Shown here piece after piece: positions 11,885 through 42,230 of a DNA stretch of 64,000 nt; position 1 is the stretch's first letter; every line of letters starts with the position of its first letter. Source of the DNA: Rhodothermales bacterium (GTDB lineage Bacteria; Bacteroidota; Rhodothermia; Rhodothermales; Bin80); assembly GCA_965262785.1 (NCBI GenBank), contig OZ253559.1, positions 4,066,151 through 4,130,150 on the forward strand. Reading direction: 5' to 3'. A program made the position numbers and the translations under genes. The notes beneath the pieces were generated by a model that made no database searches, had not been told where the DNA came from, and saw only the letters and a program-made list of their open reading frames with translations.

Positions 11885-12859
11885 CTACTCCGCGGCTTCT
11901 GCGGCTTGCGCCGCATAGTAGCGGGCAACAGCGCCCTTTCCGGCTCTCTGGGCGCGGGTGTAGTGTGCTGGCATAGACGACGACTTCCAGCGTCCCGCCG
12001 TCTGGAGCTCAACCAGCGATATACCCATCGCAGCCAGGTCCGAGGCCATGCCTACCCGGGGAGAGTGGCCCGTGAAGCGCCCCTCTAATCCCCCATAGCG
12101 TGCTGCGTCCGCAATGCGGCGGGCTACAGTGCGACTGGACATGCCGAGTATAGACATGTCGCCGTCCGCGCCCATGCGGACATCCTGCAGGGCCGCTACA
12201 GTAGCCCGGGACACATAGAGCACCTGGCCGTGCGCGTCCTGGTCGGTCTTGCTGCGGCGCACGGTCAATCGTCCGGTACCATCCGCCACCACCTGCAGGT
12301 CCTCCCACACGAGTGCCGCGGCTTCGCTGCGGCGCAGCAGCGCATCGCGCATCAGGCACACGAGCGCGATATCGACCTTTCCGCGCCGTTGGGCAGCGGC
12401 GGCGGCTTCTGTGCGGCCCGTTGTGCTTGTTCGGGGGCGGCACGCCGTGGCCCTGATGGCGCCCACCATCGCGGCTGTTAAGCCGGTTGCCTGCCTTGTC
12501 CGCTGCTGACCTGCCCTGGCGGCCTTGCGCCGCAATCCCCGCAGCACGGTGGCCACCGCCGGATGCGCTCCGGGCGTGGAATGGCCCGCCCATTCGTGGG
12601 CCTGTTTGATCGCGCACAGCGTGGTCGCGCGCCAGGAGTGGGATTTACCCGCGCGGTCCGTCAGGTACATGGCCACCACTTCGGGCACAGCAGGTAGTGC
12701 GGTGAACCTGTGCTCGTCCGCCCATGCCTGAAAGCCGCGCCATAGCGCCTGATACGTGCGTACGGTGGTGGGAGCCAGGGCATCTGCGAGCGCCTCTGCG
12801 ACCCGGGCGGCCGCTTCGGAAGGCATGGCTTGGAGGGCTGTTGCGGGAAGTGTTGCCAT
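11885..12859 (-). CDS. Cre-like tyrosine recombinase A
   Basis: SAM-like N-terminus (APTTVRTY..W..F..W); catalytic LLRRSE (R), RSKTDQ (K), HSPR (HxxR), GRW (W), HY (Y). Confidence 0.9.
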   Translation of the reverse strand: MATLPATALQAMPSEAAARVAEALADALAPTTVRTYQALWRGFQAWADEHRFTALPAVPEVVAMYLTDRAGKSHSWRATTLCAIKQAHEWAGHSTPGAHPAVATVLRGLRRKAARAGQQRTRQATGLTAAMVGAIRATACRPRTSTTGRTEAAAAAQRRGKVDIALVCLMRDALLRRSEAAALVWEDLQVVADGTGRLTVRRSKTDQDAHGQVLYVSRATVAALQDVRMGADGDMSILGMSSRTVARRIADAARYGGLEGRFTGHSPRVGMASDLAAMGISLVELQTAGRWKSSSMPAHYTRAQRAGKGAVARYYAAQAAEAAE

Positions 12860-12885
12860 GTCCGTTAAATACCTTTAACGGACAT
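12858..12885. promoter_or_regulatory. lox-like palindrome overlapping recombinase A start codon
   Basis: ATGTCCGTTAAA-TACC-TTTAACGGACAT, perfect 12-bp arms. Confidence 0.65.
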
Positions 12886-13148
12886 CGTACACGGGCGGTG
12901 AACAGGGGTTCCGGAGCTTCGGATGGCCTTGGGTCAGCGGCCCTCATCCCAGGTCTCGTGCTCCATGCGGGCCGTCCCGACTCAGCTGGCTGAACGTGGG
13001 CAACTCAGCACTAGCATGTGCAAGGGCTGGATGCGAGTTGGGTGGCCCGCAGGCACACTTAGCCCGCATCGCTCCCAGACCGGGACCCATTGGCTACAGA
13101 CGCCTCGAACTATGGCGATTCAAGATCTTGGTGAGCGATGCGGGTTAG

Positions 13149-20365: not shown

Positions 20366-20373
20366 GGCCTTCC

Positions 20374-21120: not shown

Positions 21121-21782
21121 TGGGACAAAACTCCTTTATTCCAAGTGAAGTCTTCGTCGCAGAACGCGACGAACCGCAGCGTGGTCTCGCCAAGCGTAAT
21201 CACGCTGCCAGACCTTAACGCTGTAGGAGACAGGACCGGCTCTCCACCCAGGTAAGTCAGGTTGGTCCCCGCACCCTGCTGAATGTGAAACCGATTATTT
21301 CTGGGGTCATACGTCACAATGGCATGCGATTCTCGCGAAATATGTCGGTCACCGAAATCAACCCGTGCCCGGGCCTTGCCCCCCCTTCCCACGGAGTTCT
21401 GCCCGCTTCCCAGTCTTACAGCCGACCCGCGGCCGGGCCCGCCTACAACGACAAGCCACCCCACGACTGGATCCGCCATGGGATCTGAGGCCGGAAGTGG
21501 GTCCCCGGGTTCGCTGGCAGACCGCTTTCGTCCCACGGCGACAACCGTGCGGGGCTCACCGCCCGCAGGTGCAAAGGCATCCAAGTCTGCATGCGGGCGA
21601 ACGGCTGGCCTGGTGGGCAACTCCCCACGCCCTATGACACTGCGACCGCGCGGGTGCTGGTCCTGTTCAGATGTGTCTTCCTTCGGACCGGACTCAAGGC
21701 CACGAAACAGGCCCTTGGCCTTCGGCGGTACCGCCGAAGGCACATCCGTCAGTAGTCCGTCTTTGTTGAGCTTCTTCGCCAT
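21117..21782 (-). CDS. FHA-domain protein with disordered N-terminus
   Basis: VVGWLVVVGGPGRG..NSVGR..GDRHISRESHA..GTNLTY. Confidence 0.88.
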   Translation of the reverse strand: MAKKLNKDGLLTDVPSAVPPKAKGLFRGLESGPKEDTSEQDQHPRGRSVIGRGELPTRPAVRPHADLDAFAPAGGEPRTVVAVGRKRSASEPGDPLPASDPMADPVVGWLVVVGGPGRGSAVRLGSGQNSVGRGGKARARVDFGDRHISRESHAIVTYDPRNNRFHIQQGAGTNLTYLGGEPVLSPTALRSGSVITLGETTLRFVAFCDEDFTWNKGVLSQ

Positions 21783-21793
21783 TGCCTCCGCTC

Positions 21794-22675
21794 CTATTCT
21801 TCGTAGAGCCGATTGATGAGGTTGTCCATGCAGTACTGGCCCGCGCTGTTGAGGGCAGCCTCCTCCTTACCCTGGGCAATGTGCTGCAGAAACACCAGCA
21901 CTGCGGCCATCACGAGCGCCATGAACGTGGTGTTGAATGCAAGCCCCAGTTTGGCGGTTATCGCCCCAAACCAAGCCTGCACAGCTTGCGCATCGTCTAG
22001 GCTCGGCATGTCGTTAGCCGCCGTGAGGGCCAGCGCGATACCGATGACCGTCCCAATGAAGCCCAGCGTGGGTATGAGCCAAGTAATATAGCGTACCATG
22101 CTGTACTTGAGGTCAATCTCGTGCTGCATGAGCTCAAGGCTGGAGTCCACCAGGCTATTCGCCTGGGCCACAGACCTGCTGATCTGGAACTGCTGAATCG
22201 CGCGCAGGATTAGTCGCTGAAGCCGAAAGTGCGTGGAACGCTTGGCCTTCATGACCTTGCGGTAGATACCAATCAGATCCTTCGATCGAAGGATGGTGCC
22301 ATGATCGTCTGGCAACAGCCCGATGCCAAATTGCCTGAATTCCGCGCGTGCGCGTGTGAACCGAGGCCACAATTCAGCCAGACCAATGAAGAACGTCAGC
22401 CACATCACATTCTGGATCGTCAGCGGGTAGAGGGCGCTTCCCCGATCCAAGAGTAGGGCGGAAAGAATGATGCGATCACTCGCTACTTCCGGTACCGGGA
22501 GCAGAGCGGTGAGGATCGCTATCACTCCAGAGCCAGCCAGCAGCGCCGAAAGGGCGCCGACAACGCGGCCGGTGGACTCGTGCAGTTCAAGCACGTTCAC
22601 GAATTCAGCCTTGCGATTGGTGAATGGTAGCGCCGTTGCGGGACTCTGGTTCCAACTATTGGGCCAGCGCCACAA
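21794..22675 (-). CDS. MotA/TolQ/ExbB proton-channel family protein
   Basis: IPTLGFIGTVIGI and LGLAFNTTFMAL TM signatures; start may be ~22600. Confidence 0.9.
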   Translation of the reverse strand: MWRWPNSWNQSPATALPFTNRKAEFVNVLELHESTGRVVGALSALLAGSGVIAILTALLPVPEVASDRIILSALLLDRGSALYPLTIQNVMWLTFFIGLAELWPRFTRARAEFRQFGIGLLPDDHGTILRSKDLIGIYRKVMKAKRSTHFRLQRLILRAIQQFQISRSVAQANSLVDSSLELMQHEIDLKYSMVRYITWLIPTLGFIGTVIGIALALTAANDMPSLDDAQAVQAWFGAITAKLGLAFNTTFMALVMAAVLVFLQHIAQGKEEAALNSAGQYCMDNLINRLYEE

Positions 22676-22810
22676 ATGAACCTGAGGTCTTCATGAGCAA
22701 TATGCGCCGGACTGCAGAGCCCCTCCCGAGTTATGCCGGTGTAATCCTTCGTGTTGGACAAGCGCCTCTCGCAGAGTCATACAAGCGCAAAGTAGCCAAG
22801 TACATTTGGC

Positions 22811-25807
22811 CTACCCACCGGCGTAGCCTTGCTCTCTGGCTAGCCGATACCAGCGGCGCGCTTCCACATAGTCCCGGTCCACGCCGAATCCGTTGTCGTA
22901 CATATATCCCAGGTTGTACTGCGCCCTCGCATCGCCTTGTTTTGCGGCCAGCCGATACCAGCGAAGCGCTTCCGCATAGTTCTGATCCACTCCCAACATG
23001 TTCAAATACGCATATCCCAAGGCGCTCTGCGCCACGGCATTGCCTTGCTCTGCGGCCAGCCGAAACCAGCGGACCGATTCTCCATAGTCCTGGTCCACGC
23101 CCCAACCATTCGAGTACGCTATTCCCAAGAGGCCCTGCCCGCCGGCATTGCCTTGCTCTGCGGCTAGCCGAAACCAGCGGAGCGCTTCCGCATAGTCCTG
23201 GTCTATGCCGATTCCGATCGCGTACGCATCTCCCAAGCTATTCTGCGCGTCGGCATTGCCTTGCTCTGCAGCCAGCCGGAACCAGCGGGCCGCTTCCGCA
23301 TAATTCCGGCCCACGCCTCGTCCATTCCAGTACGCATCTCCCAAGCTATTCTGCGCGTCGGCGATGCCTTGCTCTGCGGCCAGCCGGTACCAGCGGACCG
23401 CTTCCGAATAGTCCTGGTTCACACCTCTTCCGTACCAGTACGCACTTCCCAGGTTAAACTGTGCATAGGCATCTCCTTGCTCTGCGGCCAGCCGGAACCA
23501 GCGGAGCGATTCCGCATAGTCCTGGTCTATGCCGATTCCGTTCGCGTACGCAAGTCCCAAGCTATTCTGCCCGTTGGCATTGCCTTGCTCTGCGGCCAGC
23601 CGATACCAGCGGAGCGCCTCCGCATAGTCTTGGTCCACGCCGCTTCCATTCCAGTACGCACGTCCCAGGTTATTCTGCCCGTCGGCATTGCCTTGCGCTG
23701 CGGCTAGCCGATACCAGCGGACCGCTTCCGCATAGTCCTGGTTCACGCCCCAACCATTCCCGTACGCACTTCCCAGGTTATTCTGCCCGCCGGCATTGCC
23801 TTGCTCCGCGGCTAGCCGAAACCAGCGGAGCGCTTCCGTATAGTCTTGGTCCGCGCCTTCTCCTTTCGCGTACGCGTATCCCAAGCTATTCTGCCCGTAG
23901 GAATTGCCTTGCTCTGCGGCCAGCCGAAACCAGCGGACCGATTCCGCATAGTCCTGGTCTATGCCGATTCCGTTCGCGTACGCATATCCCAAGCTATTCT
24001 GCGCGTCGGCATCTCCTTGCTCTGCGGCCAGCCGGTACCAGCGGACCGATTCCGCATAGTCCTGGTCTATGCCGATTCCGTTCGCGTACGCATATCCCAA
24101 GCTATTCTGCGCGTCGGCATCTCCTTGCTCTGCGGCCAGCCGGTACCAGCGGACCGATTCCGCATAGTCTTGGTCTACGCCGGTTCCGTTCCAGTACGCA
24201 AGTCCCAAGCCATACTGCGCGCCGGCATTGCCTTGCTCCGCAGCCAGCCGGTACCAGCGGACCGATTCCGCATAGTCTTGGTCTACGCCGGTTCCGTTCC
24301 AGTACACATGTCCCAAGCCATTCTGCCCGCCGGCATTGCCTTGCTCCGCAGCCAGCCGAAACCAGCGGACCGCTTCCGTATAGTCTTGGTCTACACCGTC
24401 ACCGACGTAGTACGCAAGTCCCAAGCCAATCTGCGCGTAGGAATTGCCTTGCTCTGCGGCCAGCCGGTACCAGCGGACCGCTTCCGTATAGTCTTGGTCT
24501 ACACCGTCACCGACGTAGTACGCAACTCCCAAGCTTTTCTGGCCGTCGGCATTGCCTTGCTCTGCGGCCAGCCGAAACCAGCGGACCGCTTCCGTATAAT
24601 TCTGGTTCACGCCTCTTCCGTTCCAGTACGCACTTCCCAGATTTCCCTGCGCCACGGCCTGGCCTTGCTCTGCGCCTAGCCGATACCAGTTGAACACTGC
24701 AAATTCTCGCAGAGTAGTCACAGCCGCAATTGTAACCAACAGTAAGGTCAACGTAACGACGAGGGCACGGTAACGCGACGCTGCAGGTCGGTCTCGTCGT
24801 GCGCGCTTCTTCAGACGAGGTTGGCTAGCTATTACTCGATTCCTCCCTTCCGTTGCATCAGACGGCGATACTGCCGCCAAGTCCCGCTCGCGGACCTTAG
24901 CAAGCAGTTCATCGCAAGAGCGAATTCGTGACGCATCCGAGATCTCCAGACACTGGTCAATGGACTCAAGCAGTCTCGGCAGGAACCTTCCCTGCCCAAC
25001 AACGCTGGCAGACGGCAACGGGTCAGCCCCGCCTTGCATGACCGCGTAAGCCCTCTGCTGAACCTTTGCCAGACTTGGCGGCTCCCATGGAGGATTGCCG
25101 CCCGCCACCATACGCCACATTACTGCCCCTACGCCGTAGATATCTGTCCATGGCCCGATGGCCCCTTCACCGACCTGTTCCATTGCTGCGTAGCCATCGG
25201 TGTACGGCGCCATGGACTTCGTAACGCCCGAGGTCTCTTGCTTGGCCGCACCGAAGTCTATCAGCACCGGCTGATTGTCCTTCCGCCGAATCAGGATGTT
25301 CGAGGGCTTGATGTCTCGGTGGTACAGCCCAGATTCATGGGCTCGCTTCAGGCCACTAAGCAGCGGAAGAATCACCTGGAGCAAGTCCCCCTCCGTAAAC
25401 GGCTCTCCTCTTTTTTCCCGCAGCTCCAGCAACGCAGACAGCGGCAGGCCGTCTACAAAGTCCATCACCATGTACGCCGTGCCGTTCGCCCGAAACAAGT
25501 CGCGGCTGGTAACAATATTCGGATGTTCTCGAAACGCTTCTAATCGTCGGCCCTCTTCCAAAAAGCGCCGGAGACCGTCTTCGAAGGAAGCTTCAATTCC
25601 TGACTCCGCAGGCTGAACGACACCAGATCTGCGCGCCGCCAACTCACGCGGGAAGTACTCCTTAATTGCAACATCCGCCTGAAGCATCCTGTGGCGACCC
25701 TTATACACAACACCGAATCCGCCACGTCCGAGTACGGACTCGACTACGCAGTCACGGAGCACGGTACCACTAGCAAGGAAGTCGCCTTCTGGTGGATGCT
25801 GGATCAT
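22811..25807 (-). CDS. Receptor-type Hanks Ser/Thr kinase, TM helix, 17 Sel1-like repeats
   Basis: LGRGGFGVVY, VAIKE, HRDIKPSN, DFG, YAAME, TDIY; TM ALVVTLTLLLVTIAAV; 36-aa repeats ending RLAAEQG. Confidence 0.93.
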   Translation of the reverse strand: MIQHPPEGDFLASGTVLRDCVVESVLGRGGFGVVYKGRHRMLQADVAIKEYFPRELAARRSGVVQPAESGIEASFEDGLRRFLEEGRRLEAFREHPNIVTSRDLFRANGTAYMVMDFVDGLPLSALLELREKRGEPFTEGDLLQVILPLLSGLKRAHESGLYHRDIKPSNILIRRKDNQPVLIDFGAAKQETSGVTKSMAPYTDGYAAMEQVGEGAIGPWTDIYGVGAVMWRMVAGGNPPWEPPSLAKVQQRAYAVMQGGADPLPSASVVGQGRFLPRLLESIDQCLEISDASRIRSCDELLAKVRERDLAAVSPSDATEGRNRVIASQPRLKKRARRDRPAASRYRALVVTLTLLLVTIAAVTTLREFAVFNWYRLGAEQGQAVAQGNLGSAYWNGRGVNQNYTEAVRWFRLAAEQGNADGQKSLGVAYYVGDGVDQDYTEAVRWYRLAAEQGNSYAQIGLGLAYYVGDGVDQDYTEAVRWFRLAAEQGNAGGQNGLGHVYWNGTGVDQDYAESVRWYRLAAEQGNAGAQYGLGLAYWNGTGVDQDYAESVRWYRLAAEQGDADAQNSLGYAYANGIGIDQDYAESVRWYRLAAEQGDADAQNSLGYAYANGIGIDQDYAESVRWFRLAAEQGNSYGQNSLGYAYAKGEGADQDYTEALRWFRLAAEQGNAGGQNNLGSAYGNGWGVNQDYAEAVRWYRLAAAQGNADGQNNLGRAYWNGSGVDQDYAEALRWYRLAAEQGNANGQNSLGLAYANGIGIDQDYAESLRWFRLAAEQGDAYAQFNLGSAYWYGRGVNQDYSEAVRWYRLAAEQGIADAQNSLGDAYWNGRGVGRNYAEAARWFRLAAEQGNADAQNSLGDAYAIGIGIDQDYAEALRWFRLAAEQGNAGGQGLLGIAYSNGWGVDQDYGESVRWFRLAAEQGNAVAQSALGYAYLNMLGVDQNYAEALRWYRLAAKQGDARAQYNLGYMYDNGFGVDRDYVEARRWYRLAREQGYAGG
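22826..24661 (-). repeat. Coding tandem array of 17 x 108-bp Sel1 repeats
   Basis: Recurrent GCCTTGCTCTGCGGCCAGCCG at 108-bp period. Confidence 0.93.
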
Positions 25808-25985
25808 TGGTCAGGCGGCCATTTCCGCTCTTGCGACATGTGCTCTTCGAAAGTAAGGCAAGCTTCGGCTAAGGACAACGGCAGACCTTTGCGCAGTTGT
25901 GCATACTCCAACCATGCTACTCCTCGAGCTGCACGCTGCGTACGCGTAGCTGCATACGATTGGCCAACGCTTTACGAGGTAATCC

Positions 25986-26101
25986 ATGCCTGCAAGAAAA
26001 ATCTCCATGTGTAAACTCAAAGAAATACTTCGCCTGGCATTCGAGGGCGGGATGGGTGTACGATCCCATAGCCCGCTGCTTGGGATTGTCGCACAGTACG
26101 G
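25986..26101 (+). pseudogene. istA: IS21-family istA N-terminal remnant
   Basis: MPARKISMCKLKEILRL..(frameshift)IARCLGLSHST, cut by repeat copy D. Confidence 0.7.
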
Positions 26102-26225
26102 TAATGAATGTCAATAGTCTTTCCCGGTCTGCGACAATTGTTAGTACAGGAAATGTTTTAAGCCCCGAAAAACGGAAATGAACGACCGGAAGGGCACCCT
26201 GCACGCCGCCTGAGATCACCGCGCA
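26102..26225 (+). repeat. Transposon-end-like repeat copy D followed by repeat M copy 3
   Basis: TAATGAATGTCAATAGTCTTTCCCGGTCTGCGACAATTG then GGAAATGTTTTAAGCCCCG..ATGAACGACCGG. Confidence 0.8.
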
Positions 26226-26897
26226 CAAACAAGGGTGGAACCGCCTCGGAATCGCCGCGGATCGCGCCCGATCGCTCAGGTACGGCCCGGGGCGATTTCG
26301 GAGACCTTTTCCTGATAACCCTGACTATCTGGGGACGCTGAAGCCGTCGGGGCGGGCTTTAGCACCCGTGGGACGCGTGCCCGCGCAGCACCTAGGTCTG
26401 CTCCTGCCAGGTGGAACGCTCTACGCGTTCCAGTATCTAATCGTCATCGTCAGAAGCGTCGCTATCAGCAATAGACGCTGCGGTACGCCTCTCTGGCGGC
26501 TTAACTTTTCGTGCTTCCAGGAATGCGCGCTCGCCATCAATCAGGGTGTCCAACCTCAAGCGGATGAGACCCGAATGATCACCGTCTCGCAATAGCTGGA
26601 CGGAATCTATTGGAAAGCCGTGGCTAGGCCTGCGATCGCCCGCTTCTGAGCGCTGAAAGATTTTTACCGACAAGGGGTTTCAATCCCTTCTACGGCGGAG
26701 CGCGGACGACGTCAGGATGGAGCAAATTGCGGGTTAAGAAAATGACGTGAGTGCTTAAGCTGCAAATTCCACCACGGGCTTGAATTTCTTGATTTCGGCA
26801 GCAGGGGCACGCGGACTGGTGAATGATCCGGACTCGATGTGGACCTTTGGCTTGATATGATGCGTATTGAGCGCCTCATAGCTGAGCCTTAAGGAGG

Positions 26898-27098
26898 ATG
26901 ACTAAGAAAGTGATAACACGGCAGTCCACGAGCGTGCATTCCAACCCCGGAGGAAGTGCCGTTCACGATGATTCGCGAGCACGCATCGTCGTGCGTGCGA
27001 CCGACACAGTGCACGCTGTAAGTCCTACTTCTGAGCGGATCATCAAGGAGACCTCGGTGAAGCGCCGACAAGCCATAAAGGTGCTGGCAAATCGATAG
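26898..27098 (+). CDS. Putative small antitoxin
   Basis: AAGGAGG RBS; 66 aa ending RRQAIKVLANR, like Doc-antitoxin C-termini; directly upstream of Fic/Doc gene. Confidence 0.6.
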   Translation: MTKKVITRQSTSVHSNPGGSAVHDDSRARIVVRATDTVHAVSPTSERIIKETSVKRRQAIKVLANR

Positions 27099-27474
27099 GC
27101 GGCACTATCGCGTTACTTACAACGACGCGATTCGCTGTCATGAGGAAGCTCTTCTGGATGGCGGGGCCCCAGGGATCATAAGCGAGCATGTGATTCGGTC
27201 AGCGCTGGGTCGCCCGTACCATGACTACTACCCAGACATCCATCAGAAGGCAGCCGCCCTGATTCACGCGATCGTTTCAAGTCGCGGATTTGTAGACGGG
27301 AATAAACGAACGGCCCTCTATCTGACGGAACTGTTCGTTCAGAGAAGTGGCTATGAATTGGCCATTGATGACCTGGAATTCGTGGAGGCTCTAACGAGCG
27401 TTGCATGCGGTCAAATGAGTTGTGAGAATCTCGCGGAGTGGATTTGTATACTGCGACGTTATTCGAACAGGTAA
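27091..27474 (+). CDS. Doc/Fic-family toxin (His of Fic motif replaced; start codon unclear)
   Basis: SALGRP..KAAALIHAIVSSRGFVDGNKRT; frame open upstream of GTG 27190 to 27079 with no ATG. Confidence 0.75.
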   Translation: MDRRHYRVTYNDAIRCHEEALLDGGAPGIISEHVIRSALGRPYHDYYPDIHQKAAALIHAIVSSRGFVDGNKRTALYLTELFVQRSGYELAIDDLEFVEALTSVACGQMSCENLAEWICILRRYSNR

Positions 27475-27600
27475 CTCGAAGGAATTCGAACACTGGATTC
27501 TGGCTGTGACTCGTGCCCGAGGCACGTTGGTCTGCACGGTGCTGGAGCTTTGCTTAACCCCGGGGCTATTGGGGTTCTCTGTTAACCAACCGAGAGCCCG

Positions 27601-27855
27601 GTGCCCAGAAAGCGAATCTCCATGCGAAAGATCAAAGACGTACTTCGCCTGCGTTACTGGGAGGAATACAGCCTGCGCGCAACGGCCCGCTGTCTGAGTA
27701 TCTCTGTCAGCACAGTAAGCAACTATATCAACCGCGCAGCCGAGGCCCAGTTGGAGTGGCCGCTGCCGGACGAGTTGACCGATGCAGAGCTGCAAGAGCG
27801 GTTCTTCCCAAAGCCCAAGGAGGCCGCGGCGCGGCCCGTGCCCGACTGGAGCTGG
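27601..27855 (+). pseudogene. istA: IS21-family istA N-terminal fragment
   Basis: MPRKRISMRKIKDVLRL..ARCLSISVSTVSNY..WPLPDELTDAEL..PDW; DDE domain missing. Confidence 0.85.
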
Positions 27856-27984
27856 GCCTCAACCGTAAGGTCCCCGACCGTAACGATCTCGGGATCTGGC
27901 TGGCAACCCACCACCAGAGGCCAAGTGGCTCGTCGCATCGGCGCACATGTCATTGTTTACGAGGGGGCGCGCGACTGGGGCCGG

Positions 27985-28074
27985 GCGGGCAGATACGCGG
28001 GGCTGTCGGTGCTCCATCCTTTCCCCAGATAATACTAATTGTCAGAGGAAAGACAACCCCGCGTATCTGCCCGC
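27985..28074. repeat. 23-bp inverted repeat with 44-bp spacer
   Basis: GCGGGCAGATACGCGGGGCTGTC (27985-28007) / GACAACCCCGCGTATCTGCCCGC (28052-28074), one mismatch. Confidence 0.75.
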
Positions 28075-28599
28075 TCACGGGCCGCGCGCTGGGAGCGCTC
28101 CTCGGCGGCGGGCCGCCTCCCTGTTGTAGCAGTCCTTACAGCGGGAGTGCAGTCCATTGAACCGGGTCCGGTCCTTGTAGAAAGCGGTGTGCGGCAGGCA
28201 ATCACGGCATAGGGAGCATGTGTACGTGCCAGGGCGAACAGGTTTATTCCGCCTGCGCCCTGCCCTGGAGCGGCGTCTGGATGTGTTGGACGGCGTGAAT
28301 GGCAAGGTGCGTGCCCCTGGAGCCAGGCGCGTCAGGCGATTGAGCGGGTCGGCCTCTGCATGGATGAAGGCCAGCTCGCGGGCGTAGGCCTTCCCTGCAG
28401 GTACGTCCGCGGCCAGGATAGTAAGCTCGTAGGGCTGGCCAGCACTGAGCTGCCTGTAAAGCTCCATGTTGACGGCGGCGTGCAGCTGGCCGTGCTGACG
28501 GATGCGCACGGCGACCTCCTTAGAGGTAACGCCCACGTAGGCGCGCCCATCCGCAAAGCCGATGCGGTAAATAGTACACGAGAGCTCAGAAGTGTCCAT
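28075..28599 (-). CDS. GIY-YIG/zinc-finger endonuclease, copy 2
   Basis: Same length as and near-identical to 10944-11468. Confidence 0.75.
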   Translation of the reverse strand: MDTSELSCTIYRIGFADGRAYVGVTSKEVAVRIRQHGQLHAAVNMELYRQLSAGQPYELTILAADVPAGKAYARELAFIHAEADPLNRLTRLAPGARTLPFTPSNTSRRRSRAGRRRNKPVRPGTYTCSLCRDCLPHTAFYKDRTRFNGLHSRCKDCYNREAARRRGALPARGP

Positions 28600-28608
28600 G
28601 TCTGGCTG

Positions 28609-28897
28609 CTACAGGCCCAGCACATCGCCACACTCACCGGCCGACGGCGGCGGCCTTCCTTTCCCTGGACACCTGCATCTCCGTCAGTGCCTGCAGCTGC
28701 GCCGTGTCATGCTGTGACGTATCCATGGCGGTCTATGGGTGGTGAATCACTATCCCATAATAAGCCCGCAGGGATGCGAGATGCTGGAGCTGGATGCATT
28801 GGGTGGGGATTATGACAGAACGCGGCTGTTAACCTTTCTATATAATTCCCGCCTATACCCTGCGGCTTGCGCCGCATAATAGCGGGCAACAGCGCCC
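28609..28897 (-). pseudogene. Collapsed module remnant: Sel1 gene with all repeats deleted, structured spacer, last codons of a recombinase
   Basis: MDTSQHDTAQLQA joined to LTEMQV..; spacer matches 11757-11884; GAVARYYAAQAA recombinase tail. Confidence 0.75.
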
Positions 28898-29497
28898 GCG
28901 GGCCGTGTTCCCACGGGTTCAGGCGCACAATTGTACTAAACGAACGTAACCACGATGAAGGCAATGACCCGCACGCCCGCGCTGCATGTACCGGGTGGTT
29001 TGCCCGTCGCCCACCGCAGGGGTATCTGCGCCGCGCCCGTCTGGAAACAACAAGGCCGCAAGCGACCGGTTAAGTACATTTTCTGTACGCTTAGAAGAGG
29101 GCACCGAGAGCACCGAAGTCCTCTGCTTATCCAGCAGGAAGATCGTTGCCGAAGCACATTAGGGAGGCTCGGCGACTCTATGGCAACCTGGAGAGACAAG
29201 GCTGAGCAACCGTAGCGCCTGGGTCGGGTGTCACATGTTGTCCACCGAATACACCACAACCGTGGGGATCACCGGGGAGGGATCAAATACGGATGTGGAT
29301 TCAATGGGTCCGTAAGCACGGCCGGACATGGCTATGCGCTTGGATTCCCCATTGGACCGAAGGCAGTCGCCTACTGACACTCGTCCATTACTGACTTGGC
29401 CACGCCGTCTACGCCCCGGGGGTAACCGGGCGGAGTCATTGCGCGGCTACGACCTGCAGGCTTTCGCGCCGGTTTTGGCGTCTTTCAGGTACAAGAG

Positions 29498-29531
29498 TTA
29501 ACTTTCGATAATTGTAGTTATCGAAAGCTAA
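29498..29531. promoter_or_regulatory. lox-like 13-8-13 site upstream of recombinase B
   Basis: TTAACTTTCGATA-ATTGTAGT-TATCGAAAGCTAA, 12/13 arm match, 5 bp before ATG. Confidence 0.75.
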
Positions 29532-29536
29532 CCACC

Positions 29537-30502
29537 ATGGCGACACTACCCGCTGCCAATACGCTGCCCGAGGCGCTGGGTGGCCGCCAGGCCGCCCTCA
29601 TCAGCGCCTCGCTCTCGGCCAACACCCGGCGGGCTTACCGACACGCGTGGGATGCCTGGCTGGTATGGCTGGGCCAGGAGGAGGCCTCGGACGTCACCGC
29701 GAGCGCCTACCTCGCTGCGATGCATGACGCGGGCAAGGCGCCCGCCACCTGCGCTCTGCACGCAGCGGCCTTGCGCTTCGCTCACCGAGTGGGGGTCCGG
29801 GGCGCGCCCGTACCTGGGCCGCTCGTGGAACGGACACTGGCGGGTATCCGCAGGGAGGGCCGCGCCCGCGGCCGCGGGCAGGTCGAGGGTATCACGTGGA
29901 GTCAGGCCGATGCCACCGCGCAGGTGGCGGCGCAGGCCGGTCTCTCCGGACTCCGTGACGCGGCCCTGGTGGCCACCATGTCGGACGCACTGCTGAGGGC
30001 CTCTGAAGCCAGTGCCCTCACCGTGGCCGATATTCAGCGCCAGGCGGACGGCTCCGGGCTACTCGTCCTCGCGCACTCAAAGACGGATCAGGAAGGCCGG
30101 GGCAGCACGCTCTATCTCGGGCCGCCCACCATGGAGCGCATCACGGCCTACCTGCAGGCTGCGGGGGTGTCGGAGGGGGTGCTTTTTCGACGCATGCGGC
30201 GCGGGGAGACGATCACGCCGTCCCCGCTCTCACCCACCAGTATCCGGAGCATCGTCCGCGGCCGCGCTGCCGGCGCCGGACTCCAGGGCCGGCACAGCGC
30301 CCACAGCCTCCGGGTGGGGAGCGCCCAGTCACTCATAGAGCGCGGAGCCACGCTGCCGGAGGCGCAGCTGGCAGGGCGCTGGCAATCCCCATCCATGGTG
30401 GCACACTACGCCGCCGGGCAGCTGGCAGGACGCGGCGCGGTGGCCAAGCTCAGGTACGCTACACAAGCAGGCGATCCTGTCCCGCACGATCAGGCCACAT
30501 AG
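29537..30502 (+). CDS. Cre-like tyrosine recombinase B
   Basis: SANTRRAY..W; RDAAL..LLRASE, HSKTDQEG, HSLRVG, GRW, HY. Confidence 0.9.
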   Translation: MATLPAANTLPEALGGRQAALISASLSANTRRAYRHAWDAWLVWLGQEEASDVTASAYLAAMHDAGKAPATCALHAAALRFAHRVGVRGAPVPGPLVERTLAGIRREGRARGRGQVEGITWSQADATAQVAAQAGLSGLRDAALVATMSDALLRASEASALTVADIQRQADGSGLLVLAHSKTDQEGRGSTLYLGPPTMERITAYLQAAGVSEGVLFRRMRRGETITPSPLSPTSIRSIVRGRAAGAGLQGRHSAHSLRVGSAQSLIERGATLPEAQLAGRWQSPSMVAHYAAGQLAGRGAVAKLRYATQAGDPVPHDQAT

Positions 30503-30609
30503 ACGCCCATGCATGCAGCCGCACGCATACCATCTCTCGACGTCAGGCCGATCTCGGCAACAAATGTGTTGGTGTCCAAGATCAACACTTCCTCCCCTGT
30601 TACTTCCAT
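30500..30609 (-). pseudogene. Possible PIN-domain gene 5' fragment
   Basis: GGAG RBS then MEVTGEEVLILDTNTFV, truncated. Confidence 0.35.
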
Positions 30610-30880
30610 TAGTTCTCCTGTGTGCATGGCCGGCCGTTCCTATATCGGCTGTATGCGAATCTAACCCAACTCGATTCAATGTGTCGCCACTACTCCCTAA
30701 TAACACGTCAAACGCGACATATGTACGGCACGCCGCAGCGGGTTAAGCCAGCATGTTCGATCTGCTGGTAGCCTACTGCTTCAAAGTTTGCATACGTCTC
30801 ATTGTCCAACTCCGTATTCTTGCGCAAGCGCATCACATATGTCGATACTATAAGGCCCAAGCGGTACGCACCCGACCATC

Positions 30881-31200
30881 CTACCCTGCGGCCCGCGCAG
30901 CGTAGTAACGTGCGACAGCACCTTTTCCGGCTCCCTGCGCCCGCGCATGGTGTGCCAGCATAGATGGTGACTTCCAGCGTCCTGCCGCCTGGAGCTCCAC
31001 TATCGACATGTTCATTGCAGCCAGGTCCACGGCCATTCCTACCCGGGGAGAGTGGTCCGTGAAGCGTCCGTTCAGCCCGAATTGTAGGGCTGCGTTCGCC
31101 ATGCGGCGGGCTACAGTGCGACTAGACATGCCGACTATGGACATGTCACCAGCGTCATCCGCTCGGATATCTTGCAGGGCCGTCACAGTAGGCCGGGACA
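30881..31200 (-). pseudogene. C-terminal fragment of a third recombinase-A paralog
   Basis: HSPRVGMAVDLA..AGRWKSPSM..GKGAVARYYAA; catalytic Tyr position reads His. Confidence 0.85.
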
Positions 31201-31243
31201 AGCCGGAGTTCGCACCGGGGAGCGCACGCTGGGCGGGAACTCG

Positions 31244-33544
31244 TCAGACCAGAGCAGAATCTATTCCCAGAATCTGGTGCCGGACTGTGAACCGCAGAGT
31301 CTTGTCGGTTGGCACGAAGTGCCGCTCGAACTCTTCTGGAATCGGTAAGAAGATGTTGTTCTTCAACACGAGGGGCGTATGTACCAGAGTTCGTGTGCCG
31401 GTGCGGTTGTGGCCAGCCTCTCCTAATAGGTTCTCGAATTGAATGTCGTAATAGACGACTGCCTGTCCGTGGCTGTAGAAGAGATACCCTGCTCGATGTC
31501 CGCCCCATGAAAAGTCGGTCGATGGCCTACGCTCCAAGAACACTCGGCGATACAGAATGTGTGCATCTCTGGTGAGAGCAAGATAGTACCTTGAGAGACC
31601 GATTACAGATTGTACGTCGGTCGCATCCAGCAATTTCCCACCTACTTCAGTTTCAAGCAGGCGCACATTCAACTCTTGTCGAATATCTTCGACGGATTTG
31701 CCTCCCGTCTGTTGCGCGACCTGGTTTACTTGCTGTGTGACCGACGCGACATCACTCCTGCCGATGGATGTCACTCTTGGTACGCGCGATCTCCGGCCCC
31801 CAAACACGGCAGCTACATCCTCGGGAGCCATGTTCGTAATCGCCGCCAATCGCTGAATCCTGCTGATATCATCGGGATCGATCTCAAAAAACTCAACAGT
31901 CGACTGGAGCTTTCGAAGGAGGGCGTCGAAGTCTCGCTTCCGCAATTCAGGGTACGAGTTCTCCAGATGCGGCAAGATGGAGTCGCGGATAAAGATGTCG
32001 AACACCGCATCGAACGACAATGACTCACGAAGCAGGACAATCCTCTCGATCTGGGGATGTCTGAAATCGATGAAGAGGACTCGGTTGCTACGCTGTGAAG
32101 GCGGTGTCCAGAGCATGGCGCCGTGAGACAACTCGCCGGCACGAACGTGCAGTCCATCGATCAAAAACTGAGTCCGCAGCCGGTCTAACAATTGGTATTG
32201 TAGCGCCATCTGAGGAAACGACAGATTGTCCACAACGCGCACACACGTAACCCTGTCTTGGAGCGGCGCAGCATTGCAGTATTTCACTAGATACTGACGC
32301 TCAACCCGCTGTCTATGTCCATCTGATGACAACAGCACCACGATCTTCCCCTGTTCCATGAATGCTTGGATGATCGATGGATCATGACCGTCACGTGCGA
32401 AATACACCCCACCTTTCGGGGAGTCGCGTAAAGAGCTTAAGGCTACACGCCTACCGCTTCCATGCACACGCACGGTCGCGGAGCCAGCAAGGTGCCATCG
32501 TCCAAACTGGTCCAGGTATCTATAGAAGGATGAGAAACGTTCTGGTAGGCCGGGAGTACCTGAAATGTGCTCGGCCAAGCCGCGCTCGACCGCCGCTAGC
32601 AGGGTCTGTACGAGAGTGCGACTCTCGTCGGTTACTGCCTCGCGTCCTGCGGTCGGCCTAAGGGCAGGGCTATCGATTATCCCCCCTAGTCCAAAGATCG
32701 TCGTGATTGGGACATTCGCAAGCATGAACCCATGCTGGTAGGCCGACACTACATTGGCAGTTGTCTGGAACACGGCGGAAACCGCTGTGTCTCTACGATT
32801 CCATAACAGCTTTTCGACCTCGATCTCGGCCTGGCCGTTCTGGAGAGCACGCACGAAGATGGTAGCCTTGGCTGGGCCGCTTGCAACCTCGATCTCTGCT
32901 CCGTTGTCACGGCTTACAGAAGGGAAGGATTCCCTGGGCATCGGTCTTCCGGCGACTGTGACCGGCACGTCTAGTAACCGAACGATCGGTGTCAGGTATG
33001 CGACGATTTGCTCGTTGGTTATGGCCCGCATTAACGTTCCAGTGACCGTTGTCCCATAGTCACACTCGGGCGGTCCCGATTCATAGAAGACGCAGTTTTC
33101 TCTGGCGGATAGTTGGCTGCGCTCCGCGAATCCAACAACAGAACGTCGTGATTCGTGAGTTCTCGTAACTACGACGAGTCGTGAGCAAACACCAAAATTC
33201 GCCATCCCGCCTATTCCGAACGTGCCCACAACTCCCGCGGCCTTGGCTTCCGGAGTGTGCTTGCCACTCTTGCCAATGCTCCAGTAGAAATTGGCAAGAT
33301 CCTCTCGCGACATTCCGATACCGGTATCCGAAATCGACAAACGATCCCCCTCAAGCATGATGGCGATCCTGTGGTCGCGCGTCACAGCCTTGGTACTGTC
33401 GCGGTATTGCTGCATCCGTATTGCGTCGAATGCATTCTGCACGTTCTCCCTCAGAAACGCAAAGGGCGACGTGTATATCTCGCGGGCCAGGATCGGAAGA
33501 ATCCGTTCCAGATCGACATCGATCGGATGAGCTTCGTCGATCAT
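31244..33544 (-). CDS. Hsp90-like GHKL ATPase with long uncharacterised C-terminus
   Basis: LAREIY..FLRENVQNAFDA, DTGIGMS, SGK, GTFGIG, GTTV motifs. Confidence 0.85.
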   Translation of the reverse strand: MIDEAHPIDVDLERILPILAREIYTSPFAFLRENVQNAFDAIRMQQYRDSTKAVTRDHRIAIMLEGDRLSISDTGIGMSREDLANFYWSIGKSGKHTPEAKAAGVVGTFGIGGMANFGVCSRLVVVTRTHESRRSVVGFAERSQLSARENCVFYESGPPECDYGTTVTGTLMRAITNEQIVAYLTPIVRLLDVPVTVAGRPMPRESFPSVSRDNGAEIEVASGPAKATIFVRALQNGQAEIEVEKLLWNRRDTAVSAVFQTTANVVSAYQHGFMLANVPITTIFGLGGIIDSPALRPTAGREAVTDESRTLVQTLLAAVERGLAEHISGTPGLPERFSSFYRYLDQFGRWHLAGSATVRVHGSGRRVALSSLRDSPKGGVYFARDGHDPSIIQAFMEQGKIVVLLSSDGHRQRVERQYLVKYCNAAPLQDRVTCVRVVDNLSFPQMALQYQLLDRLRTQFLIDGLHVRAGELSHGAMLWTPPSQRSNRVLFIDFRHPQIERIVLLRESLSFDAVFDIFIRDSILPHLENSYPELRKRDFDALLRKLQSTVEFFEIDPDDISRIQRLAAITNMAPEDVAAVFGGRRSRVPRVTSIGRSDVASVTQQVNQVAQQTGGKSVEDIRQELNVRLLETEVGGKLLDATDVQSVIGLSRYYLALTRDAHILYRRVFLERRPSTDFSWGGHRAGYLFYSHGQAVVYYDIQFENLLGEAGHNRTGTRTLVHTPLVLKNNIFLPIPEEFERHFVPTDKTLRFTVRHQILGIDSALV

Positions 33545-35118
33545 GAATCCGCACCACCCAAACCAGTGAACTGGGCTGTCAGTTGCTGTCGCAGCATTCT
33601 TGCTCCATTGTCATTGTATCGGCCACAATGCAAGGCCAGTGCGTCCCTGGCCCGGCCGAATTCGTCGGTTCTAGCGTAAGCAAAGATTAGGTTCTCCAAC
33701 TCGCCGCGGGACATCGCGTCGAGATCCAACTCTTGAAGCGTATCGATGATGACCGGCCACCGCTCGAGAACGGACAGCATTTCAACGTAGCGTTCCCTCA
33801 ACGCGGACATGCCTACGAATGTGCTAAGAAATTCAGCAGCTGCGGCGGGTCCCACTGCCTCCTCGAGTCTGTCGCTCTCGACGAGCGCGGCTCCTATCTG
33901 TTCGTCATCAGTCGGACACAGCGTTTCGATGACAACTCTGTCGAAATCCTGAAGGAGCTTATCGACGCTCGTCGAATCCAGTCGGGTTCGGTAGTCGTCA
34001 GCGAGTCTCGACAAGCCCCTCGCCGCAGTCTCCAGGTCCCCAGTGGCTAGAAGCTGTTCTCGAAGGTCAAGCGACGAGGTTAGAAGTTGAGCAACCTCGG
34101 GGTCAAGGACGCAAAGTCTGCTTAGGTCCATGGGAATCGCCGCACGACCGCGCTCGATCCGGGGACCGTGCGAGTAAAGATCGAACGCGACCCCGACCAA
34201 CCACGGGCCTCCGACACAAGAGCGCACCTTCAATATCAGCTCTCTTGGTAGATGCTCATGTCTCCCCTCTACGACGGGAGAATCCAATCCACAAGCGGCT
34301 TGGAAACCACTCCAAGAAAGGAGGTTTTTTAACAGGCCGAGAGCATTGCGAACGCTGTAACGTCGCCAAGCTCCCTCCTGATTGTCGAGAGTCTTCTTGG
34401 CCTTATCCGCACGATCAGAGATGCCTCGTGCAACCAACCACGGCACAGGATGGACCCGCTTCGTGGCTGCGAAGGTCACTCCTGCGGCCTCCATGTCGAT
34501 TGCGAGGAATTTGCGATTGATGCGCTTCAATTCATCGACAAAAGCGCTCGACGCAGCAACAATATTGCCCGAAGCGATAGGACCGATGTGCAGGGTAGCC
34601 GGCAGCGAACAAACACTGTCCCTGCTCGGAACCGTCAGCTCTTCAAAATCCTTTTCGACCTGTGTCTGCCACCTTCGGAAGCCATCGGGACACGCATACT
34701 CAAAGTGTTTGACAGCTTCCCCGATCGCGAACTTCTGTGACCAGTGCCGCCCCGAGTAGTGGATTTCGTAACCGTCCTCTGTTGACTGTGCTTTGGAGCT
34801 AGCTTGGAACTCATTGACCTCGCCTGCGATTACGACGTCTCCCACCTCGACGCAATCGTCGAGTGCCCCCGCCAAGCCAAGGAGCACGAGAATCTTGACA
34901 TCCGCAAAGCCCAGTAGATGGGTTGCAGCATACAGCGCAGGTAGAGTTCCCATTTCTCCCGCTAGACAGCACACTGCCGACGCTGATGATAGCTCCAGCC
35001 GATAGAGATAGCTGCCCTCGTACGGGATCGGCTCCAATTGCTCAGAGAGCTCAGCGACGTAATCAAACTCCTCACGCAAGGCGATTACGACACCAACGTC
35101 GAAATGTTGCTTAGGCAT
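33541..35118 (-). CDS. PNP/MTA-SAH nucleosidase domain + helical (TPR-like) C-terminus
   Basis: VIALREEF, GLAGAL..GDVVI, GPIASG, IDMEAAG, RGISDRAD; ATGA overlap with GHKL gene. Confidence 0.85.
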   Translation of the reverse strand: MPKQHFDVGVVIALREEFDYVAELSEQLEPIPYEGSYLYRLELSSASAVCCLAGEMGTLPALYAATHLLGFADVKILVLLGLAGALDDCVEVGDVVIAGEVNEFQASSKAQSTEDGYEIHYSGRHWSQKFAIGEAVKHFEYACPDGFRRWQTQVEKDFEELTVPSRDSVCSLPATLHIGPIASGNIVAASSAFVDELKRINRKFLAIDMEAAGVTFAATKRVHPVPWLVARGISDRADKAKKTLDNQEGAWRRYSVRNALGLLKNLLSWSGFQAACGLDSPVVEGRHEHLPRELILKVRSCVGGPWLVGVAFDLYSHGPRIERGRAAIPMDLSRLCVLDPEVAQLLTSSLDLREQLLATGDLETAARGLSRLADDYRTRLDSTSVDKLLQDFDRVVIETLCPTDDEQIGAALVESDRLEEAVGPAAAAEFLSTFVGMSALRERYVEMLSVLERWPVIIDTLQELDLDAMSRGELENLIFAYARTDEFGRARDALALHCGRYNDNGARMLRQQLTAQFTGLGGADS

Positions 35119-35306
35119 TGTCTGGAGCTACCCCGATCCGATGGACAGCTGATCGCCATCGGCACCAGTACTTAGGTGGTCGACAGGCGGTTGAAGTAAG
35201 GTCTTTTCCAGACCCGGAAATATGGCGTACCCTCGGAGCGTATTTGTGGGCCTCTGGCGTGCCGAGTAGGAAAGCCTTGTCGGTCCGATCGTACCGATCA
35301 CCGTTC

Positions 35307-36230
35307 CTAATGTTTTATCGTGAGCCCTTCGGTCGTGTCCGACACCCGACCACAAAAGGCGTGCGAGGATGCTGTGGATGTCGCCAGGTGCCATCGAGAC
35401 GCCACAAGCCCAGTGTCCGAACCCGCCATGCTGACTGACGGCGGCAACCCATTCGGTGAGGAACATACGCTTGGTCCGGTCGCGGTCTGTGTCTTGGCCC
35501 TTGGTCTCCAGCCCCAGCATGTCACCCGAAGTAAGGCGGATGAGGGAGTCGGGTCGGCATTTCCGCACCACGCCCCGATGGACATAGAACACTTCGAAGC
35601 CGAGATGGTCGTTCTTTACCAATGCGTCTACTTCGGATGCGTGGTCGAGCGTGAAGGCGTCCGAGGCCTCCCGCGTACCGTCAGAGACGCAGAAGTTGAT
35701 GTGGCTGCGCGCCGTGGGCGCGCACGGCCTGCCCGTAAACCACGTGCGCTTGTCGCCGGTGGCGCGGATCGGCTGATCCCGGTCGAAGACCGGCTCCAGC
35801 CTCTTCGTGTTTTCGTGGCGGATCGCTTCCCAGATGTGCTGCACCACCCTGATCATGTTGAGCATGATGAGGAGACGGCGCTGAACAGACCGGGGGCAAT
35901 GGCGATTCTGTCGGAACGGATGAACAGTTCGGCCAACTGTGCGGTTTGGGCAACATCGAGTTCCAAGGGCCTTACTCGGTCCCAATCGAGCGATAGGCGT
36001 GATTGATGCGCACGACATTCGGCCATGAAATCTCGAACCGCTCCTGCCTGTCCATCACCGGCTCGATGGCGGTCTTCGGCTTCGCCGGCGATGGCAGGCT
36101 GTTCTCCCACCCCTTGTGGGGCAGGAACGTGAAGGGCACCCCGAAGACGTTGACGTATTCCGGCTCGAACAAACCCGTTGCCGGGTTCACGTCGTACGAT
36201 GTGCGACGCAGGCCGCTCACGTAACCGCGC
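35307..36230 (-). pseudogene. Type III restriction (Res)-like gene, frameshifted C-terminal remnant
   Basis: GLRRTSYDVNP..PEYVNVFGVPFTFLPH; SHINFCV; VKNDHLGF; ETKG spread over several frames. Confidence 0.75.
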
Positions 36231-42226: not shown

Positions 42227-42230
42227 TCTT

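Follow-up and report, generated by a model that had tools for sequence, protein, structure and literature searches.

A candidate Cre/lox-type recombinase and site pair in the defence island of a Rhodothermales bacterium

Is the AT-rich palindrome that stops four nucleotides before the start codon of recB1, a gene for a Cre-like tyrosine recombinase, the site at which this enzyme exchanges DNA? The gene lies in a stretch of 64,000 nucleotides, hereafter called the window, which is G000:C1:4066151-4130150 of the 4.25-Mb single-contig genome (G000) of a Rhodothermales bacterium. An original prediction, made from the letters of the window, had proposed that the palindrome is the native target of the recombinase. 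After comparing the locus with the rest of the genome, with homologues and with known systems, we consider it likely that the palindrome is the crossover site of the adjoining recombinase and that the two form a natural pair of the Cre/lox type. The main and strongest evidence for this view is indirect and comes from related loci of the same genome, where homology breaks off in the middle of the site and where arms of different subfamilies are combined. The site probably acts as a point of integration or exchange for modules in a defence island.

The site and its adjoining recombinase

The locus is made up of the following parts.

29456..29496, + strand: conserved left flank of 41 bp, accompanying the left arm, with a weak -35-like TTCAGG inside (blastn and alignment by eye)
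29497..29511, + strand: left (gene-distal) arm, GTTAACTTTCGATAA (sequence and repeat finding)
29507..29512, + strand: -10-like GATAAT across the border between left arm and spacer, a putative promoter element (comparison of sites)
29512..29517, + strand: asymmetric central 6 bp, TTGTAG, the putative crossover region (29511-29518 in an 8-bp reading); homology with other copies starts or stops at 29510-29516
29518..29532, + strand: right (gene-proximal) arm, TTATCGAAAGCTAAC, 4 nt 5' of the ATG (sequence and repeat finding)
29537..30502, + strand: recB1, an intact Cre-type simple tyrosine recombinase of 321 amino acids with R154, K182, H256, R259, W282 and Y291 (open reading frame (ORF), Pfam, PDB and Foldseek)

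On re-reading, the letters of the site and its 5-bp distance to the ATG agreed with the original prediction: TTAACTTTCGATA (29498-29510), ATTGTAGT (29511-29518) and TATCGAAAGCTAA (29519-29531) are followed by CCACC and by the ATG at 29537. The reverse-complemented right arm reads TTAGCTTTCGATA and matches the left arm at 12 of 13 positions, with one difference. By repeat finding, the inverted repeat has arms of 15 nt each (29497-29511 and 29518-29532) that are 14/15 (93%) complementary and separated by a gap of 6 nt. Because the inverted repeat is longer than 13 nt per arm, several geometries (15-6-15, 14-8-14 and 13-10-13) are equally valid, and 15-6-15 at 29497-29532 is the best description of the palindrome. 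The 13-8-13 geometry proposed originally is a valid palindrome, but it is one of several equivalent readings of arms that reach 15 nt and carry one mismatch. Two other properties ascribed to the site were borne out, namely its asymmetric spacer, the centre reading TTGTAG, and its AT-richness in a GC-rich setting (G+C about 31% by hand count vs 63-65% in the neighbouring 1-kb bins).

The neighbouring gene had been described as an intact Cre-like recombinase with the signature R-K-HxxR-W-Y. The ORF of 321 codons is indeed open, and the motifs LLR-A-SE, SKT, HSLRVG, GRW and HY align with the catalytic R, K, H-x-x-R, W and Y of Cre (R173, K201, H289, R292, W315 and Y324 as given in PMC10250229). 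All 21 family members compared carry R154, K182, H256 and R259; W282 and Y291 are conserved in at least 90% of them. Pfam found PF00589 (Phage_integrase, 3e-13) at residues 135-293 and PF02899 (SAM-like N-domain, 1e-4) at residues 24-80. A sequence search of the PDB returned 17 matches at E ≤ 0.01, all of them Cre or its engineered derivative Tre (best 3.9e-13, residues 38-305). An AlphaFold model built with 21 relatives (mean predicted local distance difference test score 79) consists of a helical N-domain and an alpha/beta C-domain. When this model was compared with the PDB by Foldseek, ranks 1-30 were all Cre or Tre (best E 3e-13, TM ~0.65, 22% identity), followed by XerA, lambda Int, XerH and IntI with E values at least 1e4-fold worse.

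The same kinship was seen among mobile elements. In a search of 50,697 phage records, only 21 matched recB1, at 25-27% identity, and each was either annotated as Cre or a record of a P1/P7-like phage. Among 72,556 plasmids, 1175 records matched, and the 25 best of these reached 28-34% identity over at least 80% of recB1. With an identity of 22-26%, Cre is the closest solved relative of recB1 by both sequence and fold, yet a distant one. From the domain, PDB and fold results, we conclude that recB1 is a simple two-domain tyrosine recombinase. As outlined in the part of Smyshlyaev et al. 2021 (PMC8138268) drawn on here, this class has core-binding and catalytic domains only and is without an arm-binding domain.

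Copies and breakpoints in the same genome

Further copies in the genome were found by tblastn with recB1; the subfamily names A, B, C and D are our own. There are four B-type copies, namely B1 (the copy in the window), B2 (1959799, minus strand), B3 (4044306) and B4 (3334455, where homology ends at residue 186), besides two A-type copies (35% identical to B), two C-type copies (about 41% to B) and several fragments. At least nine full or hybrid lox-like sites stand before recombinase genes or pseudogenes of subfamilies B, C and D. Five of them are given here as left arm, centre and right arm.

B1 site: GTTAACTTTCGATAA - TTGTAG - TTATCGAAAGCTAAC; intact gene downstream
B4 site: GTTGACTTTCGATAA - TTACAC - TTATCGAAAGTTAAC; broken gene downstream
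D-type site at 1974 kb: CGTTACGTTTGATAA - TTGTAG - TTATCGAACGTAACC; pseudogene downstream
C1 site: AAACATTTCCGATAA - TAACAC - TTATCGGAAACTATT; downstream an open frame of 331 codons without an ATG at its start
C2 site: AATTCTTTCCGATAA - TAACAC - TTATCGGAAACTATT; ORF of 316 amino acids downstream

Further C-type sites lie at 1347 kb and 2276 kb, with no intact gene behind either. The right arm, with 0-1 changes, precedes all four B-type gene copies. The left arm recurs with one change at G000 3334415 and 1154678, and a copy split by an insertion sequence (IS) is present at 1.93 Mb. When one mismatch was allowed, the 15-nt B arm had seven occurrences in the genome, all seven at these recombinase or site loci. 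A genome-wide search for copies had been suggested along with the original prediction, and full, hybrid and half sites were what it brought to light.

The copies diverge from B1 at mid-site. B2 and B3 have retained the right arm together with the gene (93-94% DNA identity), and other DNA stands in place of the left arm; homology to B1 begins at 29516 in B2 and at 29510 in B3. At 1154637-1154697, the 41-bp left flank and left arm are present with a centre reading TTGTAC, and the sequence diverges past the equivalent of 29516. The blastn matches of B4 and of this 1154-kb copy begin at 29456/29457. On the left side of B1, 26000-28844 matches 1939562-1936718 (99.4% over 2846 bp) and 28838-29506 matches 1933467-1932799 (99.7% over 669 bp). 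At this 1.93-Mb locus, the left arm is broken after GTTAACTTTC by an IS of 2170 bp with a TTTC duplication; past the IS follow GATAA TTGTAC TTATCGGAAACTATT, the last being a C-type right arm, and then a recC remnant. The comparison between the window and the 1.93-Mb locus thus reveals near-identical left segments (about 8 kb) that are joined mid-site to a B-type module in one place and to a C-type module in the other.

Arms of different subfamilies also meet within single sites. In the hybrid site at 3309 kb, the left arm and centre are of C type and the right arm is of D type. A decayed site close to recB1 belongs to a second kind of combination.

28918..28951, + strand: decayed D-type site, consisting of a left flank without its arm, TTGTAC and the arm TAAACGAACGTAACC, with a recombinase 5' remnant from the ATG at 28955

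Here and at three other loci, a D-type left flank without an arm and TTGTAC are followed by either a decayed D-type or an intact B-type right arm.

The larger layout can be read in the same terms. In the correct orientation, the next B-type left arm lies 51 kb downstream of B3, where it is that of the B1 site, and 27 kb downstream of B2, where it is that of the 1.93-Mb site. The final ~8 kb of the 51-kb and 27-kb segments are homologous (88-99.7% identity) and have in common a kinase with Sel1 repeats, a sigma-70 region-4 protein, a GIY-YIG gene, a decayed D-type site and the left flank. Such a layout of B3 and B2 would be expected if a circle with a full site had integrated into another site, leaving a foreign arm with the right arm and gene on one side and the left arm with a resident right arm on the other. 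On this reading, the full B1 palindrome would be the junction of the 51-kb segment with the resident recB1. An unoccupied target (the B3 left side plus the 1154-kb right side) was not found in the genome; the DNA left of B3 is itself repetitive, with four close copies, and the repeat left of B2 is found a second time at 788 kb.

On the model of Cre, a monomer of 321 residues would bind each 13-15-bp arm, two sites would synapse as a tetramer, and Tyr291 would cleave at the edges of the central 6 bp, TTGTAG, with strand exchange proceeding via a Holliday junction; no arm-binding domain would take part. A module would carry the gene-proximal arm and the recombinase gene at its start and the conserved flank and distal arm at its end. 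A full palindrome would be either the closed junction of a single module or the junction between two tandem modules, and integration into another site would yield hybrid or half sites. We infer catalysis on the site, as well as the direction and timing of the rearrangements, from sequence comparison.

Finally, we compared assembled contigs of public runs with the window. Contigs of runs X3 and X5, which come from one sample, span 29247-29626 as the assembly does, and the contigs of the public runs showed no joint reported at the site itself. Loose contig ends at 29482 and 29516 represent the 1154-kb paralogue. A contig of 556 nt from run X1, which belongs to another study, fits 29094-29516 and continues with 133 letters unlike the window. 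It is compatible with an IS-free version of the 1.93-Mb locus and is not decisive; it proves nothing.

Homologous loci and known recombination systems

Relatives of recB1 are numerous. At least 2255 proteins among 8000 candidates scored matched it at E ≤ 1e-5, typically with 45-57% identity, and 568 of 604 candidate stretches from species-representative genomes encode a relative. The following counts for distant loci rest on the best 80 of these 568 loci. All 80 come from metagenome-assembled genomes (MAGs), whose names span at least 12 phyla and include a Nitrosopumilus; names like Poribacteria and Poriferihabitaceae suggest that the hosts of the recB1 family live in sponge-associated communities. 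Closer to home, the genomes of 20 relatives were searched at E ≤ 1e-20, and a match was found in 9 of 12 genomes of the same family and in none of 8 from other families in the order.

Two of these nearer genomes are informative about the site. In one of a different genus (G002), the conserved flank and GTTAGCCTTTGATAA TTGTGC TTATCGAAAGCTAAC stand before a 92%-identical gene, whose ATG comes 3 nt later. In one of the same genus (G001), the arrangement of the window is kept, and an ISL3-type element (L096:67-1474) lies between the left and the right arm.

Among the distant loci, a lox-like full site was found within ~400 nt upstream in 7 of 80 (L005, L012, L016, L040, L043, L064 and L077). The half-site consensus, at up to two mismatches, occurred in 10 of 80 upstream regions vs 2 of 300 control windows, and the simple motif GATA-N8-TATC in only 4 of 80. 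An inner ATAA/TTAT is common to all 13 full sites compared; further out, the arms vary by lineage and remain complementary. Across these 13 sites, which were selected as palindromic, a choice that inflates the result, 9 of 15 pairs change on both sides, with 29 cells vs 11.3 expected, and none of 500 shuffles reached the score. Shifting one arm by 1-3 columns lowered the pairing from 86% to 29-45%. Because the sites were chosen as palindromic, the covariation shows a specificity that varies between lineages and not the frequency of palindromes.

One of these loci, L043, is from the Nitrosopumilus MAG. Its recombinase is 43% identical, and the palindrome TTTAGCGTTATATAA AAGCGT TTATACAACGCTATT lies at 1476-1511, at the extreme 5' end of the region that matches the recombinase. 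This suggests that the putative recombinase and site pair crosses the domains of life.

The closest known system is Cre/loxP of phage P1. We read loxP from the annotated P1 record AF234172.1 (ATAACTTCGTATA GCATACAT TATACGAAGTTAT). Of the 13 positions in the loxP repeat, the left arm shares 9 and the right arm 8; a match of 9/13 is reached by only 4e-4 of the 13-mers in the genome. Both systems combine a two-domain simple tyrosine recombinase of ~320-340 amino acids, with R-K-H-R-W-Y, and an upstream site with inverted arms of 13-15 bp and an asymmetric centre of 6-8 bp. In P1, the promoter P4cre lies on the far side of lox, and here a -10-like element lies at the border of arm and spacer. The two differ in that loxP is ~420 bp upstream of cre (the P1 record starts mid-lox, and cre begins 436 nt into it), whereas the site described here stops 4 nt before the ATG. 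Their spacers are unrelated, with 1 or 3 of 8 positions equal. Furthermore, the pair described here is chromosomal and multi-copy, with several subfamilies and hybrid sites, whereas P1 has a single phage-plasmid site.

Cre-like pairs have been mined before. The portion of Jelicic et al. 2023 (PMC10250229) used here describes Cre-like proteins of 300-400 amino acids mined together with palindromic half-sites of 13-15 bp within 1 kb. It reports ~500 predicted pairs, of which 8 were validated, about half of those tested, and a G(T)-A-T(G)-A motif beside the spacer, with T at position 7, that active sites share. Going by that portion, recB1 and its site agree with the mined pairs in size, catalytic residues, half-site length and distance to the gene, and also in the motif, since GATA closes the 13-nt arm and position 7 is T. 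They differ from those pairs in that the recB1 family comes almost wholly from uncultured genomes. The recB1 half-site was not found in one supplementary file of PMC10250229 (that file only), and full-text literature searches turned up no characterised member of the recB1 family. On these comparisons, the pair would be a new, uncharacterised system of the Cre/lox kind. What appears to go beyond the known picture is the presence of many subfamilies in one chromosome, the hybrid sites, the apparent promoter within the site and the wide spread among uncultured microbes.

Other systems fit less well. Xer systems use a single chromosomal dif site. XerC/XerD and dif resemble the present pair in having simple tyrosine recombinases and short arms around a 6-bp centre, and the NCBIfam models for XerC and XerD match recB1 weakly (40.3 and 39.6 bits vs cut-offs of 335 and 330). 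They are unlike it in that many sites per genome occur here, each adjoining its own recombinase gene. A XerC/XerD resolvase with a dif site was rejected on these scores of ~40 bits vs 335/330 and on the count of at least nine sites and eight genome matches to recB1 alone.

Integrases with an arm-binding domain (lambda Int type), found in phages and conjugative elements, share with recB1 the integration and excision of genomic-island DNA, a role that is probable for recB1, and lambda Int cores appear at Foldseek ranks 39-42. They are unlike recB1, which has no arm-binding domain according to Pfam and the model. No tRNA or tmRNA gene (43 genome-wide) lies within 6 kb of 12 checked recombinase or site positions. 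An arm-binding integrase of the lambda Int type was rejected for want of an N-terminal arm-binding domain and of a nearby tRNA gene; arm sites were not searched for. Abutted IS ends, as in the circle junction of DDE-type elements, were rejected because the gene beside the site encodes a tyrosine recombinase and genes of this kind accompany every recurrence of the arms.

Competing explanations and the defence island

Several results weigh against the crossover reading. The centres of the presumed partner junctions differ (TTGTAC vs TTGTAG for the 51-kb segment and TCGCAG vs TTGTAC for the 27-kb segment). The left partner of B2 is a truncated repeat without a recognisable pseudo-site; going by our reading of its translation, it may be a group II intron reverse transcriptase. 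What the B copies have in common is limited to ~1 kb, that is, arm and gene. Their homology stops either 22 nt past the gene end or 25 nt short of it, and there is no shared cargo that would define a clean element. Because the B1 arrangement is also present in the genome of the same genus, it is not recent, and with so many pseudogenes among the neighbouring copies, the system may be in decay.

The homologues add to these points. The full site is lacking in 73 of the 80 loci within the ~400 nt upstream, and generic palindromes are only modestly enriched, with 7 in the -250 to 0 bin vs 0-4 in each other 250-nt bin. The selection of palindromic sites for the covariation set belongs here as well. 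A lack of full sites would be expected if most homologues had integrated with hybrid sites; it still limits the evidence. Co-varying palindromes at homologues, which had been named as a check on the original prediction, are thus found at 7 loci and missing at 73. Its central claim, that the palindrome is the native target of the recombinase, draws support from the kinship with Cre, the 9/13 match to loxP, the mid-site breakpoints and those co-varying palindromes, and is limited by the loci without a full site.

The signs of decay lend some weight to another explanation, that the palindrome once served this recombinase lineage as a target and that the B1 copy has ceased to recombine; it would be the fossil of a junction, in a mosaic that is breaking down, and the gene would be kept, if at all, for another role. 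The one mismatch between the arms agrees with this, as do the presence of the same junction, ISL3-split, in the same-genus genome, the pseudogenes or gene remnants behind at least five neighbouring or paralogous sites, the IS elements inserted in two such sites, and the distance between the B copies (dS 0.16-0.19, hence not recent). Against it stand the intact state of all six catalytic residues and the 99.7%-identical left flanks on different right modules, which point to fairly recent exchange. Moreover, the ratio of nonsynonymous to synonymous substitution rates (dN/dS) is 0.158, 0.159 and 0.161 among B1, B2 and B3, and 0.14 for A1/A2. These low values argue that the B-type and A-type genes are maintained by purifying selection, which has continued in all three B copies. 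We therefore regard a mere relic as unlikely.

A role of the site in transcription can be combined with crossover. GATAAT or TATAAT, made up of the five bases that end the left arm and the one that opens the centre, occurs in 13 of 15 sites listed. L005, L016 and L040 have, 17-18 nt further upstream, a -35 element that agrees with TTGACA in 5-6 of 6 positions, with the left arm between -35 and -10. In the present genome, the -35 is weak (3/6 in B1, 4/6 in C1 and C2). Because the left arm lies between the -35-like and -10-like elements and the right arm stops 4 nt before the ATG, the site probably doubles as promoter and operator, a role less certain than that in crossover. Autoregulation by recB1 is plausible from this arrangement. 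If the promoter is real, transcription would start near the beginning of the right arm, bound recB1 would block the promoter and shut the gene off, and each crossover would part the gene from its promoter and hand recB1 to a different one. Two results at B1 count on the other side: a scan of 29300-29650 for consensus sigma-70 promoters and terminators found nothing there, and no Shine-Dalgarno sequence is visible.

The same features could mean that the palindrome is an operator and nothing else, bound by recB1 or another regulator for the control of transcription while recombination takes place elsewhere. The short distance of 4 nt to the ATG, the -10-like GATAAT and the palindrome of paralogue A, which overlaps its own start codon, are in keeping with such a role. 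It leaves unexplained the homology switches within the central 6-8 bp, the arms from mixed subfamilies and the isolated left and right arms; moreover, the half-site resembles loxP, which is a crossover site. We find this explanation improbable.

A search of the window for palindromes (arms of at least 13 nt, up to one mismatch, spacer of 4-10 nt) yielded only three distinct ones, at 12856 (start codon of a paralogous recombinase), 29497 (the present site) and 46000. This amounts to 6 registrations vs a mean of 0.5 in 20 Markov-1 random sequences, and both intact Cre-like genes of the window have one of its three strong palindromes at their 5' end. Random palindromes do occur, and an AT-rich one could melt or form a hairpin, but a chance or structural palindrome (a terminator or generic repeat) unrelated to the recombinase can hardly account for a site that is one of only three per 64 kb, two of them at Cre-like gene starts, whose arms recur only beside recombinase genes or remnants, that is conserved with its flank in another genus (G002), and that has no terminator or Rfam match (E ≤ 0.1, window 25800-31300).

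Returning to the crossover reading, we put forward a wider picture only tentatively, and it may well not hold in full. Self-contained modules of the lox/Cre type, each made up of a promoter-bearing site, a recombinase gene and cargo, might build and reshuffle defence islands via each other's sites and swap partners between subfamilies that share the inner arm motif. They might gain a new promoter with each crossover and spread horizontally through at least 12 phyla of one habitat, apparently sponge-associated, including an archaeon. Were recB1 active on its site, a simple Cre-like recombinase and not an arm-binding integrase would organise a chromosomal defence island, and an unstudied recombinase family would be abundant among uncultured microbes. 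If recB1 recombines the site, a distant Cre/lox-type pair, at 22-26% identity to Cre, would be gained. With 4 of 13 half-site positions unlike those of loxP, and with another spacer, the pair would, if active, be a candidate for orthogonal genome engineering. The natural B, C, D and A variants could be used to map how specificity co-evolves with the site.

From 1 to 50 kb, insertion sequences and defence-type genes form a mosaic in the window, and housekeeping genes follow from ~51 kb. Of 16 window proteins scanned, 8 matched PADLOC models, including PD-Lambda-5 A and B, a fused type II methylase-endonuclease, an NsnA/GmrSD-like protein, a PDC-S20 KAP NTPase and a PNP-type effector. The original prediction had treated a single pair; the pair stands, embedded in a many-copy, decaying mosaic of such modules that the prediction had not seen. 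Three further pieces of this mosaic belong to the A subfamily.

11885..12859, - strand: recA-type Cre-like recombinase of 324 amino acids, 35% identical to recB1
12856..12887, - strand: A-type palindrome, CGATGTCCGTTAA AGGTAT TTAACGGACATGG, 13-6-13 with one mismatch, overlapping the start codon of the A gene
30886..31200, - strand: A-type recombinase gene reduced to a 3' remnant, downstream of recB1

The second A-type copy, at G000 1311535, is 95% identical and has the same palindrome with one change. The palindrome at 46000-46035 is GC-rich (13-10-13, one mismatch) and lies where the type II methylase-endonuclease gene overlaps the next ORF; it is the sole strong one of the window away from recombinase genes. 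The 2170-bp IS of the 1.93-Mb locus (window 1-1072; G000 1930629-1932798) has ~30 near-identical copies in the genome, and AT-rich lox-like sites appear to be preferred landing places of insertion sequences. The stretch 28895-29326, which separates the decayed D-type site from the left flank, is repeated at 1143 kb, 268 kb and 1071 kb (75-87% identity); this repeat has no Rfam match.

Two GIY-YIG proteins of 174 amino acids with a Cys-rich tail are encoded at 10944-11468 and 28075-28599 (- strand) and are 95% identical. By blastn, their gene region has three more copies in the genome (89-95% DNA identity), and the copies inspected adjoin a Cre-like recombinase gene, either complete or reduced to a 3' remnant. 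The GIY-YIG genes may parasitise these recombinase genes in the manner of homing endonucleases.

Among the neighbouring genes, the operon at 31244-36018 (- strand) is a candidate defence system. It encodes a HATPase_c_3 protein (GHKL-type, 766 amino acids), a PNP_UDP_1 protein (525 amino acids), which matches PADLOC PDC-M60C and a PN-superfamily effector, and a protein of 296 amino acids without a family. At 41255-43289 (- strand), a RelA/SpoT-domain protein (323 amino acids) adjoins a GmrSD_N/NsnA-like protein (352 amino acids), just upstream of the fused restriction-modification gene. The cluster at 17886-25807 (- strand) encodes a Ser/Thr kinase of 998 amino acids with 17 Sel1 repeats, two FHA proteins, a PP2C phosphatase, and VWA and MotA/ExbB-like proteins; its kinase end is duplicated at 1.94 Mb with 88-94% identity.

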